Notes: a model not told the origin generated them from the letters alone. A stretch of DNA of 64,000 nt from Patescibacteria group bacterium (GCA_041661385.1 JBAZUP010000001.1:495920-559919); one strand, 5' to 3'. Counted from the first letter of the stretch, positions 19,876-53,145 are shown. Program-made: numbers and translations.

Positions 19876-19948
19876 GCGCCTGTAACTCAGCGGTAAGAGT
19901 GCCACCCTTATAAGGTGGAAGTCGATGGTTCGATTCCATCCAGGCGCA
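19876..19948 (+). tRNA. tRNA, anticodon read as UAU (Ile, AUA-decoding), 73 nt, no encoded CCA
   Basis: gcgcctg/caggcgc acceptor; D-arm actc-agcggtaa-gagt; anticodon arm ccacc-cttataa-ggtgg; T-arm gatgg-ttcgatt-ccatc; discriminator A. Anticodon identity is from a manual fold. Confidence 0.7.
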
Positions 19949-19982
19949 CCGCTCATTTGCATTTCTGAGGCCCGACGTAAAT

Positions 19983-32796: not shown

Positions 32797-32824
32797 CAAA
32801 AACCCGCCTTGCGGCGGGTTTTTT
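32797..32824. terminator. Bidirectional terminator; 3' end of rnpB on the minus strand
   Basis: aaaaacccgccttgcggcgggtttttt. Confidence 0.75.
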
Positions 32825-32825
32825 A

Positions 32826-33217
32826 GTCTAAAGTTATAAGCCGAATTCTGTCAAGCCTCCCTTTCGGAAGACAGGGATAATCATTTATCTGGGATGGTTG
32901 TTACCAACCACCTCTAGCGAGCGAACTTTTCGAATCCGTTTTACCGGAAACGCTGCTCTTGCATCAGGTAGGGTTTAGCACACTCGTAAATCGCTTTACA
33001 AGGAGTATAGTGGCTTTGATCTAGAACCAAAACCTCCATACACTTTTCACCTTTCATCCCGACTAAATCGGAACTAGTATTGTCTCTGTGCCACTTTCCC
33101 GACTGCCGTATCACTACGGGAGTGGTGGGCGTTACCCACTACCACTTTCCGCCTTGCGACGGAGATGTTCGGACTTTCCTCCCCATGCGAAGCATGGAGC
33201 GATTATCTACTTTAGAC
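32826..33217 (-). ncRNA. rnpB: RNase P RNA
   Basis: Minus-strand motifs: GGAAAGUCCGAAC (P4 5' strand), GAAAGUGGCACAGAGACAA, ACAGAAUUCGGCUUAU (P4 3' strand). P1 pairs gucuaaagu (5') with acuuuagac (3'). Confidence 0.85.
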
Positions 33218-33224
33218 GGTAAAT

Positions 33225-47230: not shown

Positions 47231-47262
47231 AAATAGCTCTTCTTATGAAAGTGAAGAGCTAT
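47231..47262. terminator. Bidirectional rho-independent terminator
   Basis: aaaaaaatagctcttcttatgaaagtgaagagctatttttttt. Confidence 0.75.
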
Positions 47263-48200
47263 TTTTTTTGAAGAAATTCTTTTATTAACTTCTTTGATTT
47301 TTCGTAATCGGTTTTATTTATCCAATTTATTCTCTTATCCCGACGGAACCACGTCAATTGGCGTTTTGCATATCGCCTAGTGTCCCTTTTGATTATTTCT
47401 AAAACCTCTTTTTCATTACTTTCACCGCGCAAATAATAACCTACCTGCCGATAACCTATACCGCTAAGACTCGGGAGATCAAAACTATAACGCTGTTTTA
47501 ACAAGCTTTTTACTTCTTCACACAAACCATTTTTCCACTGCGCTTCGGAACGCCGGTTTATTCTTTCGTACAATTCGGAAAGCGGCCAAGAAAGTCCGAT
47601 TTGAAGCGCTTCCACGACCGGCTCAGATTTTGAACGTTGCTTGGTAAATGATTCGCCGGTTGAAATCGCTACTTCGAGAGCGCGAATTAATCTTCGCTTA
47701 TTCTTTTTATCTACCATAACAAATGCTTCAGGGTCAACCGATTCAAGCAAAGCCAAAAGCTCTTCTATGCTTTTACTTTCAAAACTTAATCGTAATTTTT
47801 TTATTGGCGGTCTTTTTGGTATGACTAAATTATCCACCACTGCCCAAACATATAGCCCGGTTCCACCAACTAGAAAGGGAACTTTTTTGCGGCTGGTTAT
47901 ATCTTTTATTTTTTGAAATGCCAACTGCTGAAAATCTGCTAAGGTAAAAGTTTTGCCAGGATCAACAATATCCATTGCGTAATGCGGTATTCCATCCACG
48001 ATAAATTTTTTTTCCTTATCAATGGTTTTCCATTTGCCTTCCGGCTTCGCTGTACCAATATTCATTTTTGTATATACCTGCCGAGAATCAACGGATATTA
48101 TTTCACCGTTAAACTCTTTAGCCAATCTCAAAGCCAGGTCGGTTTTACCCGAAGCAGTTGGCCCAAGAATTACGACGACTTTATTTAACCCATTTTTCAC
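47259..48200 (-). CDS. miaA: tRNA dimethylallyltransferase
   Basis: VVILGPTASGKTDLAL P-loop, ISVDSRQVY. GTG start, 4-nt overlap with thrS. Confidence 0.85.
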   Translation of the reverse strand: MKNGLNKVVVILGPTASGKTDLALRLAKEFNGEIISVDSRQVYTKMNIGTAKPEGKWKTIDKEKKFIVDGIPHYAMDIVDPGKTFTLADFQQLAFQKIKDITSRKKVPFLVGGTGLYVWAVVDNLVIPKRPPIKKLRLSFESKSIEELLALLESVDPEAFVMVDKKNKRRLIRALEVAISTGESFTKQRSKSEPVVEALQIGLSWPLSELYERINRRSEAQWKNGLCEEVKSLLKQRYSFDLPSLSGIGYRQVGYYLRGESNEKEVLEIIKRDTRRYAKRQLTWFRRDKRINWINKTDYEKSKKLIKEFLQKK

Positions 48201-49942
48201 AGTCGCTCTTTAATTTCTTTTAAGACTTTATTTGTAAACTCTTGTTTACTCATTACTAATTGATCCTTTTCTCCCCTCACTCTGATCATCCAATTTTCAC
48301 CAGCCGCTTCTTTATCGCCGACTACCACCACATATGGTATTTTCTGACCGACAGAATTGCGAATTTTTTTGCCGACCGACTCATCGGCATCATCTATACC
48401 GACCCGAATTCCCAAATTTTCGAATTTCTTCATTATTTCTTTGGTTACCTCTACATGTTTTTCCGAAACCGGCATAAATAGAACTTGGACCGGTGAAAGC
48501 CAAACCGGGAACACTCCGCCAAAATGTTCGATTACAATACCAAGAAAACGCTCAGTCGAGCCTAGAATAGCGCGGTGAATTACCACCGGTCTTTGGCGCG
48601 AACCATCGACTGATACATATTCGAGATCAAAACGTTGTGGTAAATTCATATCGAGCTGAATGGTTGAAAGCTGCCATTCTCGACCAATCACATCCTTAAC
48701 CATGAAGTCGAGCTTTGGACCATAAAAAGCCGCCTCTCCCACACCAACTTCATTTTTCCATCCTCGAGCTTCAATTAATTTTGACAGCGATTTTTCACTT
48801 TGTTCCCATACTGCAGGGTCACCAATATACTTTTCTTTATTTTTTGGATCATGCGTCGAGATACGGACCCAAAAATTATTGAACTGAAATACCTTGTATA
48901 CTTCTCCAATCATATCAAGCATAATATTAATCTCATTCTCAATCTGATCCGGACGGGCAAAAACATGACAATCATCTTGTGTTAACGAACGCACCCTGGT
49001 AAGACCAGACAATTCACCGCTTTTTTCATAGCGATAATTAGTGGTTGTGCAGGTCCAGCGCATCGGCAATTCGCGGTAAGAATGAAGATTGGTTTTATAA
49101 AGCATCATGAAATGCGGACAGTTCATCGGTTTTAAATAATACGAAGCTTCATCTTTAAGCTCCATCGGCGGATACATCGCATCATACTTATCCAGATGTC
49201 CCGAAATCTCATAAAGTTTACCTTTGGTAATATGTGGGATCCATATTGGTTCGTAGCCGCGCTTTTCCTGCAATTCCGCAATAAAATTCTCAAGCGTTCT
49301 ACGTAAAACCGCACCTTTTGGATAAAACAGTGGTAACCCGGAACCAATTTCATCGATGATGGTAAATAACCCGAGCTCCTTTCCAAGCTTGCGATGATCG
49401 CGTTTTTTGGCTTCTTCCAGCTGAGTTAAATATGTCTGTAGTTCATCTTTGGTTGGAAAACAAGTACCGTAAATGCGAGTTAACATCTTATTCTTTTCAT
49501 CTCCGCGCCAATAAGCGCCAGCAACGCTCATAAGCTTGAAGTGCTTTAATTCTTTACTTGGGTTTTCACAATGTCCACCCCTACATAAATCAGTAAAAGT
49601 ACCCGCGGTATATAATGTCAAAGTTTGGCCGTCTTTACCAAATTCATTAATTAATTCTCGTTTATAATCATTACCTTTAAATTTCTTCAGGGCATCAGCG
49701 ACACTGACCTCGCTTCGCTCGAAACTTTTCCATTCGCCCACAATTAAACGCATTCTCTCTTCAATCTCCTTTAAGTCACTCTCGTTAATTACAAGGCCTT
49801 CGAAGTCAATATCGTAATAGAATCCGTTTTCGATTGGTGGACCAATTGTCAACCTTGCATTACGATATTTTTCGATACTCAAAACAGCTGCGGCAAGCAG
49901 ATGGGCGCAGGAATGACGTAAGTTATCAAGTTGTTCGCTCAT
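48197..49942 (-). CDS. thrS: Threonyl-tRNA synthetase (lacks the N-terminal TGS domain)
   Basis: HSCAHLLAAAV (editing-domain HxxxH), class II motifs (FRLEMSGA-like region, GxGxGxxR), C-terminal anticodon-binding domain. Confidence 0.9.
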   Translation of the reverse strand: MSEQLDNLRHSCAHLLAAAVLSIEKYRNARLTIGPPIENGFYYDIDFEGLVINESDLKEIEERMRLIVGEWKSFERSEVSVADALKKFKGNDYKRELINEFGKDGQTLTLYTAGTFTDLCRGGHCENPSKELKHFKLMSVAGAYWRGDEKNKMLTRIYGTCFPTKDELQTYLTQLEEAKKRDHRKLGKELGLFTIIDEIGSGLPLFYPKGAVLRRTLENFIAELQEKRGYEPIWIPHITKGKLYEISGHLDKYDAMYPPMELKDEASYYLKPMNCPHFMMLYKTNLHSYRELPMRWTCTTTNYRYEKSGELSGLTRVRSLTQDDCHVFARPDQIENEINIMLDMIGEVYKVFQFNNFWVRISTHDPKNKEKYIGDPAVWEQSEKSLSKLIEARGWKNEVGVGEAAFYGPKLDFMVKDVIGREWQLSTIQLDMNLPQRFDLEYVSVDGSRQRPVVIHRAILGSTERFLGIVIEHFGGVFPVWLSPVQVLFMPVSEKHVEVTKEIMKKFENLGIRVGIDDADESVGKKIRNSVGQKIPYVVVVGDKEAAGENWMIRVRGEKDQLVMSKQEFTNKVLKEIKERL

Positions 49943-50128
49943 ATTTTATAAATTAATAATTTTAAAAAAAATACCCCGACACGCTAAGATTACAGCGCAT
50001 CGGGGTCTTAAAGTTATATTTAAGACGGTTCCACCCGAATATTTCTCTTTATTAAATTTGTTGCATACTCCGAGAATGGTACCATGCCTTACGGCTGGGC
50101 TGGCTCTCGTACGAACGTATGCAAAAGC
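49943..50128 (-). promoter_or_regulatory. Candidate T-box leader (tRNA-Thr-sensing antiterminator) upstream of thrS
   Basis: Minus strand: AAUAUUCGGGUGGAACCGUC matches the T-box consensus AAUUAGGGUGGNACCGCG. Fold: A1 uucggg/cccga, 7-nt bulge UGGAACC, A2 gucuuaaa/uuuaagac. The A1 3' strand overlaps the 5' strand of the terminator accccgaugcgc...gcgugucggggu plus U8 (49965-50007). ACC followed by A lies in the upstream stem region. Confidence 0.5.
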
Positions 50129-50131
50129 TAC

Positions 50132-50159
50132 TTTATACCTTCTTTTCTCTCATGTCAAG
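50132..50159 (-). promoter_or_regulatory. Sigma70-type promoter for the thrS leader
   Basis: Minus strand: TTGACA, 16 nt, TATAAA. Confidence 0.45.
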
Positions 50160-50167
50160 ACTCTACA

Positions 50168-51307
50168 CTACTTTATATTCCGAAGAATTATCGTAATTCG
50201 ATCCGAAGCAGCTGGCGCAGTAGAAACCCAAACTGGGGAAAATTTTACATCAACCCCGGCCACATGCTTTAACCCCATAATATATCTTTCAATCTCTTCT
50301 TTTTTCTTTCCAAAAAATTTGTCCGGTGAAAGCAGTTCGCTGTTAGAATCTAGACTGACCGCTACTTCTTGCCTAACATTTAGAGTAGCTGTTCCTTCGT
50401 TCGCATTATAGGTAGAAACTATAACCTTTGGATCGCTAGTAAGCGATGAATACCATTCTGATTTAGAATCAATTTGTCCGGCTGTTTCATTATTTACAAG
50501 CGCGGTTAAATTATCTTTTTTAAATTCAACAATAACTACCGTGCTAGTACCATAAACTTTAAATGATGATACAGTTTCGCCCGTTGAACGATCTGATAAA
50601 ATATTTTCATCAACAAGAGAAAGCAATCTCACAACACCGGTTTCAGCTTCCGGCAAGGTTTTTATAAATTCCGCCTGCATTTTTTGTCGATATTCATTTT
50701 TTGCATTATCAATATCATCAGCACTTAGACTGCCAATCGATTTCATACCGCCAGACATTGGCAAAAAGCTTTCCGCATAAATTACTTTTTGTTTATCCGG
50801 AGTGAGCCCAGGAATTGTAAATTTAGATGGTCCAATATTACTGATTGACCCTTTTTTATCAGCGTAAACGTCGGCTTGAACTTCACCGTTCGCAGGAATT
50901 ACTATCTGATTTGTTAGTCGAAATAAAACCCCTTCAGCATTTACAAGACGCGTTGTTTTAACCAAGGTTTGAGCGACCGCCATCTTATTATAAACTGTCA
51001 CTTTTCCAGTTGCCACATCTTCAATTTGTGAATTACCGGTCGGAGTAAAATTTGCCGAATATGAAAAAGCGGAAGTATAAACTTTACCGCCAATGGCGCG
51101 TTCGCCCTGCTCTGTTCCGGCGGTTACTGTAAATGTAATAGGTTCTGGATCTTGTTTAGTTAAAACCGTAATCGTAACTTTTTTTGATGTAATAAAAATG
51201 ACCACTCCAAGAAGAATAATGGTCAGGAATAGAAATGATAAAGCAATACCTTTATAAAAACGCACTGGCGGCTCCGGTGCCTGCGTACTCATACGATGTA
51301 TAATCAT
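50168..51307 (-). CDS. Hypothetical membrane-anchored protein carrying the conserved leader module
   Basis: 379 aa. N-terminal TM IALSFLFLTIILLGVVIFI. Adjacent to the PilB-like ATPase gene. Confidence 0.45.
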   Translation of the reverse strand: MIIHRMSTQAPEPPVRFYKGIALSFLFLTIILLGVVIFITSKKVTITVLTKQDPEPITFTVTAGTEQGERAIGGKVYTSAFSYSANFTPTGNSQIEDVATGKVTVYNKMAVAQTLVKTTRLVNAEGVLFRLTNQIVIPANGEVQADVYADKKGSISNIGPSKFTIPGLTPDKQKVIYAESFLPMSGGMKSIGSLSADDIDNAKNEYRQKMQAEFIKTLPEAETGVVRLLSLVDENILSDRSTGETVSSFKVYGTSTVVIVEFKKDNLTALVNNETAGQIDSKSEWYSSLTSDPKVIVSTYNANEGTATLNVRQEVAVSLDSNSELLSPDKFFGKKKEEIERYIMGLKHVAGVDVKFSPVWVSTAPAASDRITIILRNIK

Positions 51308-51432
51308 ATTTGAAATGAATGAGAAAAATGAAAAATATTTTTTATTTCTAAGCGAATGAGAATATATGCGGTAAAGCCCATCTATTTTATTTTTTCGTCA
51401 TTATTATAACACAAAATTTCACCTGCTGCCAT

Positions 51433-53145
51433 TTATTCTGACACCCGGAATACTTCATCAAGAGAAGTAATCTTTTCCAAAGCTTTTAAAACACCATCCT
51501 GCGCAGTAGTAACCATGCCATCTTTTTTAGCAATTTCTTCAATTGCGTGAGCAGAAACCTGACCACCCAAAACTACCGCTTCAATTTCTTTAGTCATGAC
51601 GAAAATTTCATAAATACCGATTCGCCCCTTATAACCAAGTCCGCTGCATTTTTCACAGCCTTTACCTTTATAAAAATGAATGTTATTAAAATCAACATTG
51701 GGCTTTTCGGCCGGCGGTAAAGTTTCGAGAAGTTTCATCGCTTTATCCAATTTTTCACCTTTTTGCAGATCTTCCTCAATACAATTTTCACAAATGCGGC
51801 GAACTAAACGCTGGCCAACAATCGTATTTAAGGCCGGAGCAAGAAGAAAAGGCTTAACACCCATTGAAACGAGACGAGGCAAAGCCCCGGCAGCACTATT
51901 GGTATGAATTGTTGATAAAATTAAATGCCCGGTTAAAGCGGACTGAATTGAAATCTCCGCAGTTTCGAGATCGCGAATTTCACCGACCATACAAATATCC
52001 GGGTCCTGACGAAGAAGACTGCGCAACCCTTTGGCAAAAGTATAATCCCGGCTTGGGTCAACCTGACTTTGATTCAAACCTTCCATTTTAATTTCAATCG
52101 GATCTTCCAAGGTAATTATTTTTACCCCTGGTTTATTTAAAGTTCTAATAATCGCGTAAAGCGTGGTAGTTTTACCACAGCCAGTTGGACCCGTAGTTAC
52201 AATCATGCCATTCGGTCTTTCTACTTCGCGTTTTAAGCGATTGAAAGCATCTCCGCGCAAACCAAGCTCATCAAATGTCACGCCCTTATTTCCGCTGCGC
52301 AAAATACGCATTACCACACTCTCTCCCCACATCGTCGGCATGGTAGACACACGCAAATCGAGACTGTCTTTTGATAGGTGCAGAGTAACCCGGCCATCCT
52401 GCGGCCGATCAGTAACATTAATTTTTAATGCGGCGAGAATTTTAATACGCGAAACAAATTGTTTCCATTGTTGGCGCGGCAACATCGCAAGATCGTGCAA
52501 AACTCCATCGATACGATACCGCACCGCAACGCCGTTTTCTTCCGCTTCTACGTGCACGTCAGACGCACCCATTTTTAAAGCCGTCGCAATCATAAGAGTT
52601 ACCACATCGCTTATTGATACGCCCTTAAAAGCGTCTTGAACCTCCTTAAGATTGTTTATGCCGGCTTCAAAACGATTTAATTCTTCGTCGGTAATATTAA
52701 TATCCTTATTAACTAATTTTACAATTGGCAAAGTCGCATACAGTTTTAAAACATGCTCAAAACTATGGCTTGAAATCAAATAAGTTGCCGCGTGAGCCTG
52801 AAATCTTTTACTTAATTCTTCGACAAATTTTAAAACCTCTACCGACGGATCCATGATGCCGATTCTTATTTCATCTGAACTAAAATAAAAACAAGCGACG
52901 CCATAATCTTTGGCTTCTTGTTCCGAAAGAGATTTAAGAGCTTCCGCCGATACCGGAAAACTTGCGAGATCAATATATGGCATATTCAGCTCTTCCGCTC
53001 TTTTTGCCACATTTTTTTCTAACTCTTTAAACCCAATTTCCTCCATTTTTTGAGTAAAAGCCGCCTGAGTCGGTGGCTCATCACTTTTTTTCACTGTCTT
53101 GCCCGAAGACAAGATATCATTAATTGAAGGAAAATCAGAAGACAT
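51433..53145 (-). CDS. Type II secretion / type IV pilus assembly ATPase (GspE/PilB family)
   Basis: VTTGPTGCGKTTTLYA Walker A, Asp box, His box, C-terminal CxxC...CxxC zinc motif (CENCIEED...CEKCSGLGYKGR). Confidence 0.85.
   Translation of the reverse strand: MSSDFPSINDILSSGKTVKKSDEPPTQAAFTQKMEEIGFKELEKNVAKRAEELNMPYIDLASFPVSAEALKSLSEQEAKDYGVACFYFSSDEIRIGIMDPSVEVLKFVEELSKRFQAHAATYLISSHSFEHVLKLYATLPIVKLVNKDINITDEELNRFEAGINNLKEVQDAFKGVSISDVVTLMIATALKMGASDVHVEAEENGVAVRYRIDGVLHDLAMLPRQQWKQFVSRIKILAALKINVTDRPQDGRVTLHLSKDSLDLRVSTMPTMWGESVVMRILRSGNKGVTFDELGLRGDAFNRLKREVERPNGMIVTTGPTGCGKTTTLYAIIRTLNKPGVKIITLEDPIEIKMEGLNQSQVDPSRDYTFAKGLRSLLRQDPDICMVGEIRDLETAEISIQSALTGHLILSTIHTNSAAGALPRLVSMGVKPFLLAPALNTIVGQRLVRRICENCIEEDLQKGEKLDKAMKLLETLPPAEKPNVDFNNIHFYKGKGCEKCSGLGYKGRIGIYEIFVMTKEIEAVVLGGQVSAHAIEEIAKKDGMVTTAQDGVLKALEKITSLDEVFRVSE

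Follow-up and report, generated by a model that had tools for sequence, protein, structure and literature searches.

The stretch of DNA analysed here (the window, 64,000 nucleotides; Patescibacteria group bacterium, GCA_041661385.1 JBAZUP010000001.1:495920-559919) carries on its minus strand thrS, the gene for threonyl-tRNA synthetase (ThrRS). A 225-nt gap on this strand, between the end of a 379-aa open reading frame (ORF; stop at 50168) and the start codon of thrS (ATG at 49942), holds a leader of ~160 nt, situated between a conserved promoter (50158-50130) and the gene. We put at roughly 80% the probability that this leader attenuates transcription in response to tRNA-Thr, as a minimal element of the T-box type. 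Its architecture and the conservation of that architecture were observed directly: a promoter, helices that covary, a Thr codon exposed in a loop, a T-box bulge and a terminator that overlaps the antiterminator. The features are as follows.

50153-50158, minus strand: -35 box TTGACA (consensus scan and homologues)
50130-50135, minus strand: -10 box TAAAGT, after a 17-nt spacer from TTGACA (consensus scan and homologues)
50117-50124, minus strand: 5' strand of P1, UUGCAUAC, pairing with 50061-50068
50110-50116, minus strand: 7-nt 5' bulge GUUCGUA (consensus GUUUGNA), opposite GA at 50069-50070
50105-50109, minus strand: 5' strand of P2, CGAGA, pairing with 50071-50075
50099-50104, minus strand: 5' strand of the specifier loop, (G)CCAGC, unpaired in the minimum free energy fold and lying within the conserved ACCAGCCCAG block
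50082-50098, minus strand: P3, with an invariant CCA/UGG base, a bulged A and a hairpin (CC-GUAA-GG in the window)
50076-50081, minus strand: 3' strand of the specifier loop, U-ACC-A-U, with the proposed Thr specifier ACC (50080-50078) followed by the purine A50077
50071-50075, minus strand: 3' strand of P2, UCUCG (covariation)
50061-50070, minus strand: GA dinucleotide (50070-50069) and 3' strand of P1, GUAUGCAA (50068-50061)
50039-50060, minus strand: single-stranded A-rich linker with the purine string AAAGAGAAA (50050-50042)
50043-50024, minus strand: T-box-like sequence AAUAUUCGGGUGGAACCGUC
50000-50038, minus strand: antiterminator (discriminator core; match to the 3' end of RF00230 and covariation in A2)
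50038-50034 with 50004-50000, minus strand: helix A1, UCGGG/CCCGA
50033-50027, minus strand: 7-nt T-box bulge UGGAACC
50026-50005, minus strand: helix A2, GUCUUAAA-UAUAAC-UUUAAGAC
49964-50006, minus strand: intrinsic terminator, a 14-bp hairpin (8 G-C pairs; 50006-49973) followed by U8 (49971-49964)
48197-49942, minus strand: thrS, threonyl-tRNA synthetase, 581 aa (Pfam tRNA-synt_2b, HGTP_anticodon, tRNA_SAD)
47259-48200, minus strand: miaA, tRNA isopentenyltransferase (Pfam IPPT)

The initial annotation of this stretch had proposed a T-box here on the strength of a T-box-like sequence, helix A1, the bulge UGGAACC and helix A2, and all four are present on the minus strand where it had placed them, as is the terminator with its U8 tract (50006-49973 and 49971-49964) sharing the CCCGA strand. 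Taken by itself, the window leaves the T-box case open. The motif GGGTGGNACC occurs once in the window against 0.22 expected, and 20 of 100 shuffled sequences contain at least one copy; promoter-like and terminator-like sites are likewise at background level within the window alone. It is the comparison with homologous leaders that decides.

Four homologous leaders (L003, L081, L083 and L085) were obtained by similarity of the ThrRS protein alone, and together with that of the window they have the whole scaffold in common, in the same place. Metagenomes were then scanned with the pattern GCCCAG-N(5-35)-ATGGTNNNA-N(30-60)-CGGGTGGNACCG, in which the triplet and the base that would pair with the discriminator were left free. 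The scan gave 66 matches, 29 of them in low-GC sequences and 37 in GC-rich ones. All low-GC matches have UGGA in the bulge, and the triplet is ACC (28) or ACU (1). A ThrRS gene lies downstream in 25 of these 29 (42-76% identity to the window enzyme); the other four contigs stop ~60-720 nt further on. The remaining 37 matches were considered as leaders having the same scaffold with other codons, and this was rejected: since they are GC-rich (most 57-74%), lie mostly within coding sequence and do not form the fold, they are attributed to chance, and their number is about what the pattern leads one to expect. Removal of duplicates left 28 leaders, all on low-GC CPR contigs, of which 23 are known through the pattern only; for these the search put no constraint on the triplet, the bulge base or any of the helices.

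The helices are supported by compensatory change. In a MAFFT alignment of 25 sequences, 85.4% of the cells are paired (29-47% in slid registers). The covariation score of 0.364 compares with 0.166 in shuffled alignments (0 of 500 reach the observed value) and at most 0.10 in slid ones. The sequence of P1 differs in nearly all of the 17 window-type homologues while its complementarity is kept, with both sides changed in 8 of 8 pairs. P2 is paired in 140 of 140 cells over the 28 sequences (56% when slid by one), with compensatory changes at all five pairs, and is likewise 100% paired in the 25-sequence count. The distal hairpin of P3, 9-35 nt long depending on the homologue, is 88% paired (41% when slid), and A2 is 84% paired (51% when slid), both with compensatory changes. 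A covariance model, R1, recovered three held-out members at 76-95 bits, also detected L094, L089 and L002, and has a single significant match in the window. The leader folds with a z-score of -5.3 relative to shuffled controls. Because of this fold score and of conserved homologues with covariation, the feature lies far beyond chance.

The predicted Stem I (P1-P2-P3) is 64 nt long and has an internal loop whose 3' side presents the Thr codon ACC in unpaired form, so that the ACC(A) specifier candidate of the initial annotation (50080-50077), which it had put in an upstream stem, stands. Across the family, (A)CCAGC on the 5' side of this loop faces U-ACC-A on the 3' side. The probability that ACC is unpaired is 0.96-1.0 in the window and 0.89 on average over the 28 sequences (0.46 for Stem I overall). 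ACC also agrees with the preference of specifiers for C at the third position (PMC7583486); ACU, found once, is synonymous and readable by the same GGU anticodon. The suspicion that Stem I is reduced was borne out, and the reduction goes further than had been foreseen, Stem II and Stem III being absent as well. Above its CCA/UGG base, P3 has no conserved sequence, and Stem I therefore has no T-loop platform.

In the window-type members G-A on the 3' strand is followed by a C-G closing pair, and A is the last base of the 5' bulge. What is conserved in this region is the final A of the bulge and the GA on the 3' side; where a K-turn should have G (1b), U predominates, and the bulge has 7 nt. The bulge and GA could thus represent a degenerate K-turn at best. 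Seven members (L098, L100, L108, L112, L127, L134 and L143) have neither P1 nor the bulge, their transcripts beginning at P2. That the 5' bulge (GUUUGUA) might pair, or form a pseudoknot, with the linker (UACAAAU) was also considered and rejected, the mean best duplex being 4.4 nt as against 4.0 nt in shuffled sequences. As a separate observation, the block UGGUACCA that includes the codon (50077-50085) is a perfect palindrome, and the UGGUA within it equals U33-GGU-A37 of the anticodon loop of tRNA-Thr(GGU); the palindrome could be relevant to folding, dimerisation or ThrRS binding.

Between P1 and A1 the leaders have 21-39 nt of unstructured A/U-rich linker, in which neither a Stem II with an S-turn nor a IIA/B pseudoknot was found. 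The linker contains a purine string with the family consensus AAAAG-NN-AAA, matching RRRxG-N(0-4)-AA in 23 of the 28 sequences. No Stem III hairpin is present in any of the 28 members; ~2 nt stand at its position, which is deleted in the Rfam alignment. UGGA of the bulge is unpaired with a probability of 0.97, and the basal pair of A2 is G-C, not G•U, in 28 of 28 leaders (25 of 25 in the MAFFT alignment). The 5' strand of the terminator (50006-49993) contains the 3' strand of A1 and the last 2 nt of the 3' strand of A2. Terminator and antiterminator are mutually exclusive because of this shared strand, with predicted energies of -25.2 and -11.9 kcal/mol, respectively. A terminator with a U-tract overlapping the 3' strand of A1 was found in 28 of 28 leaders, and this competition, together with the specifier in Stem I, supports the earlier suggestion that a T-box controls thrS.

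Two deviations from the common plan were seen. In L098:5736-5942, L114:1569-1733 and L143:1214-1430 the A2 loop contains a GC-rich, conserved and apparently structured insertion with the consensus CCUUCGCYCCUUYGGRGCUUCGG.CCGGCAAGC.GUC..., so that the interior of A2 is 59-103 nt long instead of the usual 15-21. In L091:1895-2000, upstream of a ThrRS gene whose product is 74% identical, a terminator hairpin resembling that of the family (ACCCCGAUACGCUG...GGGGGAUUUUU) occurs with neither a T-box sequence nor Stem I; possibly the leader has decayed here.

A sequence of the form TTGACn-N16-18-TAnnnT ends 22-35 nt 5' of GCCCAG in 24 of the 28 leaders, and the -10 box of L081 is identical to that of the window (TAAAGT). 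The promoter of the initial annotation is thus upheld in its -35 box, TTGACA at 50158-50153, and not in its -10 box: the TATAAA it had chosen stands at a spacing of 15 nt, not 16, and the homologues favour TAAAGT with a spacer of 17 nt. From this spacing, transcription is predicted to start at ~50123, at the 5' end of P1, i.e. the foot of Stem I. Since the promoter lies 5' and the terminator 3' of the structure, the terminator acts on the thrS transcript and not on that of the upstream gene.

Leaders of other designs were found before thrS in the candidate phyla radiation (CPR). L020:2500-2700, L060:2770-2960, L075:2750-2960 and L094:1290-1430 have a T-box-like discriminator with the bulge UGGAACC, and their Stem I, of another design than in the window, has a 7-nt apical loop (CUACCAA or CCACCAA) in which ACC is displayed. 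U-ACC-A is therefore common to differing Stem I architectures, which is what one would expect if it is the specifier. Both a Stem III hairpin and a G•U as the basal pair of A2 are retained in L020 and L075, which also end in terminators; these two seem to stand between canonical T-boxes and the class found in the window. Among CPR thrS leaders the basal pair of A2 is G•U, G-C, U-A or A-U. A further T-box-like site in L020 (bulge UGGU, ~1724) lies inside a 770-aa ORF and was dismissed as a chance occurrence.

Every CPR thrS leader examined has UGGA in its bulge, from which a discriminator U73 is predicted in the cognate tRNA-Thr. Bacterial tRNA-Thr is one of few families split at this position, between A73 (82%) and U73 (18%) (PMC6097841); because of this split, UGGA is compatible with tRNA-Thr, and the prediction of U73 is both plausible and discriminating.

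We propose the following mechanism. Transcription would start at ~50123, and the nascent RNA would form the 64-nt Stem I, exposing ACC and the following A on the 3' side of the internal loop. When uncharged tRNA-Thr(GGU) accumulates, its anticodon would pair with ACC, and its free 3' end (predicted UCCA) would pair with UGGA of the 7-nt bulge, stabilising A1 and A2. These helices would retain CCCCGA, the stronger terminator would be blocked, and RNA polymerase would continue into thrS-miaA. With charged tRNA-Thr, the antiterminator would not be stabilised, the terminator would form, and transcription would stop ~22 nt before the thrS start codon.

Several observations have to be set against the reading as a tRNA-Thr-responsive T-box. 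The Rfam T-box model, RF00230, gives 16.4 bits on a 451-nt slice around the leader (E = 0.18; gathering score 93), which is not a significant match, and it detects no other member of the class; at the gathering score it has no match in the whole window or in 36 related loci. In the 23 sequences known from the pattern only, GCCCAG, AUGGU, the A that follows the codon and CGGGUGG.ACCG owe their invariance to the search. No leader with the same scaffold and a different codon was found before another aminoacyl-tRNA synthetase (aaRS) gene in the metagenome scan, and no tRNA-Thr gene in the window, in ~1.1 Mb of further loci or in the loci of related contigs reached through two proteins near the edges of the window. 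We infer the binding of tRNA and the discrimination between its charged and uncharged forms from sequence and predicted structure. Finally, Stem III is described as indispensable for binding the tRNA 3' end, transcriptional T-boxes as generally needing an elbow-binding platform, Stem II as essential wherever such a platform is lacking, and the G•U pair as the main aminoacyl sensor (PMC7583486). All four are absent here, so that the class must operate in another way or with assistance, unless it fails to distinguish charged from uncharged tRNA.

With an RF00230 score so far below the gathering level (16.4 as against 93 bits), the T-box motif proves little by itself. The weak score was not taken as a refutation, since covariation supports the structure independently. 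Only the 3' antiterminator part of the model aligns with high posterior probability, matching GGGUGGAACCG. The initial annotation had named two findings that would jointly speak against a T-box, no significant RF00230 match and no plausible Stem I with the specifier in a loop; the former was observed, and a covariation-supported Stem I that presents ACC in a loop exists. The discriminator half is evidently related to that of T-boxes, and the leader would work like a T-box lying outside RF00230 as now defined. We regard it as about an even bet that a Patescibacteria T-box core of ~125 nt (less where P1 is missing) reads the charging of tRNA-Thr by essentially two contacts, or else that a hitherto unknown RNA motif or protein replaces the lost parts. 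The two contacts of this minimal arrangement would be the pairing of codon with anticodon and that of NCCA with the bulge, with no elbow platform, Stem II, Stem III or G•U sensor pair and, in some members, no K-turn at all.

The absence of Stem III, of the interdigitated T-loop (IDTM) platform, of Stem II and of G•U, each indispensable or essential in the T-boxes studied (PMC7583486), and a basal A2 pair that varies from one CPR thrS leader to another (G•U, G-C, U-A, A-U) are also what one would expect if a T-box-derived attenuator bound tRNA-Thr without itself sensing aminoacylation, so that it reported the abundance of tRNA-Thr or relied on a protein partner or on an RNA motif such as the ACCAGCCCAG/AUGGU block. 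The purine string that flanks the position of Stem III and the full UGGNACC bulge are kept, which suggests that the pocket for the 3' end is still under selection, and no candidate gene for a partner protein lies in the conserved neighbourhood; we consider this alternative improbable. Control by ThrRS itself has a precedent in E. coli, where thrS is controlled through tRNA mimicry by ThrRS binding (PMC9976931). Here, UGGUA would mimic U33-GGU-A37 and ThrRS binding would favour termination: AUGGUACCA does hold the anticodon GGU between U and A, and the block is present in all five independently found leaders. This GGU, however, forms or flanks the invariant base of P3 instead of standing in a 7-nt hairpin loop, and L094, L020, L060 and L075 keep ACC without an adjoining GGU. 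An operator of that kind would also leave the T-box bulge, the antiterminator and the purine string unexplained, and the element ends in a terminator ~22 nt 5' of the AUG with no overlap of the ribosome-binding site, all of which makes such an operator very unlikely.

Least credible of all, to the point of being nearly negligible, is that the leader contains no RNA sensor and is either a leader-peptide attenuator or no more than a terminator belonging to the upstream gene, with a promoter after it. It is true that the intergenic region has a terminator-like hairpin and that the conserved AUGGUACCA starts with AUG, which opens a frame of 21 codons in the window. This frame is not conserved, stopping after 6 codons in L081 and having another length in L083, and it contains one Thr codon only; the substitutions compensate in RNA helices and are not codon-like, and neither Thr_leader nor any other Rfam family matches the leader. 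A T-box-type attenuator responding to tRNA-Thr therefore remains our preferred reading.

The start codon of miaA (GTG) overlaps the stop codon of thrS at 48197-48200, and because of this overlap miaA, which encodes a tRNA-modification enzyme, is probably co-transcribed and co-regulated with thrS. The two genes are adjacent in L081, L083 and L093, and in L094 and L091 miaA is found further downstream, separated from thrS by a gap or by other genes. On the other side of the leader are the 379-aa ORF and a gene for a type II/IV secretion ATPase (T2SSE; together 50168-53145). The gene order T2SSE, 379-aa ORF, leader, thrS, miaA is kept in several relatives. The 379-aa product has no Pfam family, and its relatives give weak matches to Baseplate_J. 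In L094:1354-2001 a GNAT acetyltransferase gene (1459-1995) is inserted between a T-box-like leader and thrS, and the leader would there control the acetyltransferase-thrS pair.

The window ThrRS (581 aa) is identical to a 'threonine--tRNA ligase' of a Patescibacteria metagenome-assembled genome (100% identity) and lacks an N-terminal TGS domain. Its closest named relative is from Candidatus Magasanikbacteria (72%), and the closest Genome Taxonomy Database (GTDB) representatives are CPR lineages (~55%). The host is thus a Patescibacteria/CPR bacterium, neither a Firmicute nor an Actinobacterium. No other T-box and no other aaRS gene was found in the window. Elsewhere, it carries a tRNA-Ile gene with the anticodon UAU (19876-19950), an unusual way of decoding AUA, which in most bacteria is read by a CAU anticodon modified to lysidine. 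A bacterial class A RNase P RNA lies at 32821-33218 on the minus strand (176 bits), with several indels relative to the consensus.

Gene regulation in Patescibacteria has been described as virtually unknown (PMC11665869). No T-box in CPR, Patescibacteria, Parcubacteria or Saccharibacteria was found in the literature searched, which is not proof of absence. A transcriptional T-box without all of the parts missing here is described neither in PMC7583486 nor in the other literature searched, and whether any T-box works without a K-turn has been an open question (PMC7583486). The TBDB collection was built with Rfam-type models on reference collections; since such models fail to detect leaders of this kind, its approach would miss the class. 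RF00230 gives 24.7 bits on L020 (E ~1e-3 in a 331-nt search) and nothing on L075; none of L020, L060, L075 and L094 reaches the gathering score. As Rfam-based pipelines miss such elements, the range of T-boxes outside Firmicutes and Actinobacteria is probably underestimated. If our reading is true, reduced, host-dependent cells monitor the charging of tRNA-Thr to set ThrRS levels, and the leader would be, for the Patescibacteria radiation, the first RNA regulator of amino-acid status to be described; views on what a T-box truly needs would have to be redrawn. Being natural and widely conserved and lacking these parts, the class offers a direct test of conclusions on T-box necessity, and a compact scaffold for engineered tRNA-responsive switches.

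With the canonical T-boxes of Firmicutes (RF00230; e.g. Bacillus subtilis thrS/thrZ and tyrS) the leader shares its location 5' of an aaRS gene, a matching codon followed by a purine on the 3' side of an internal loop in Stem I, a T-box sequence (GGGUGGNACCG) making A1, the 7-nt bulge and A2, a purine string (RRRxG...AA) before A1, and a terminator that shares a strand with the antiterminator. The specifier of B. subtilis thrS is also ACC. The window class differs in its sensing core of ~125 nt and in its Patescibacteria host. Its Stem I shows neither the distal interdigitated T-loop platform nor an AG bulge or S-turn consensus; Stem II, IIA/B and the helix of Stem III are all absent, and a G-C pair takes the place of G•U.

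Among known T-boxes, those of glyQ/glyQS (Oceanobacillus, Geobacillus, Bacillus), the simplest that have been well studied, are similarly transcriptional, without Stem II or IIA/B and with a simple linker (PMC7583486). Unlike the window class, they keep a long Stem I with an elbow platform, the K-turn, Stem III and G•U; moreover, the stated reason why Stem II is dispensable in glyQS is a codon-anticodon duplex made of G-C pairs throughout, whereas ACC/GGU has one A-U. The actinobacterial ileS T-boxes (Mycobacterium, Nocardia) resemble the window class in a Stem I truncated above the specifier, with no elbow contact. Their specifier stands in a side bulge (intermediate form) or in an apical loop (ultrashort form), the latter resembling L020, L060, L075 and L094. 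They are, however, translational, acting by sequestration of the Shine-Dalgarno sequence, whereas the window class would terminate transcription, and they need the S-turn of Stem II, the IIA/B pseudoknot and the K-turn and keep Stem III and G•U, compensating modules that the window class does not have. The E. coli thrS operator is protein-binding and translational, with hairpins like the anticodon arm over the ribosome-binding site and with neither a T-box bulge nor a terminator; what it has in common with the present leader is that both are cis-regulatory thrS leaders using a sequence logic related to tRNA-Thr.

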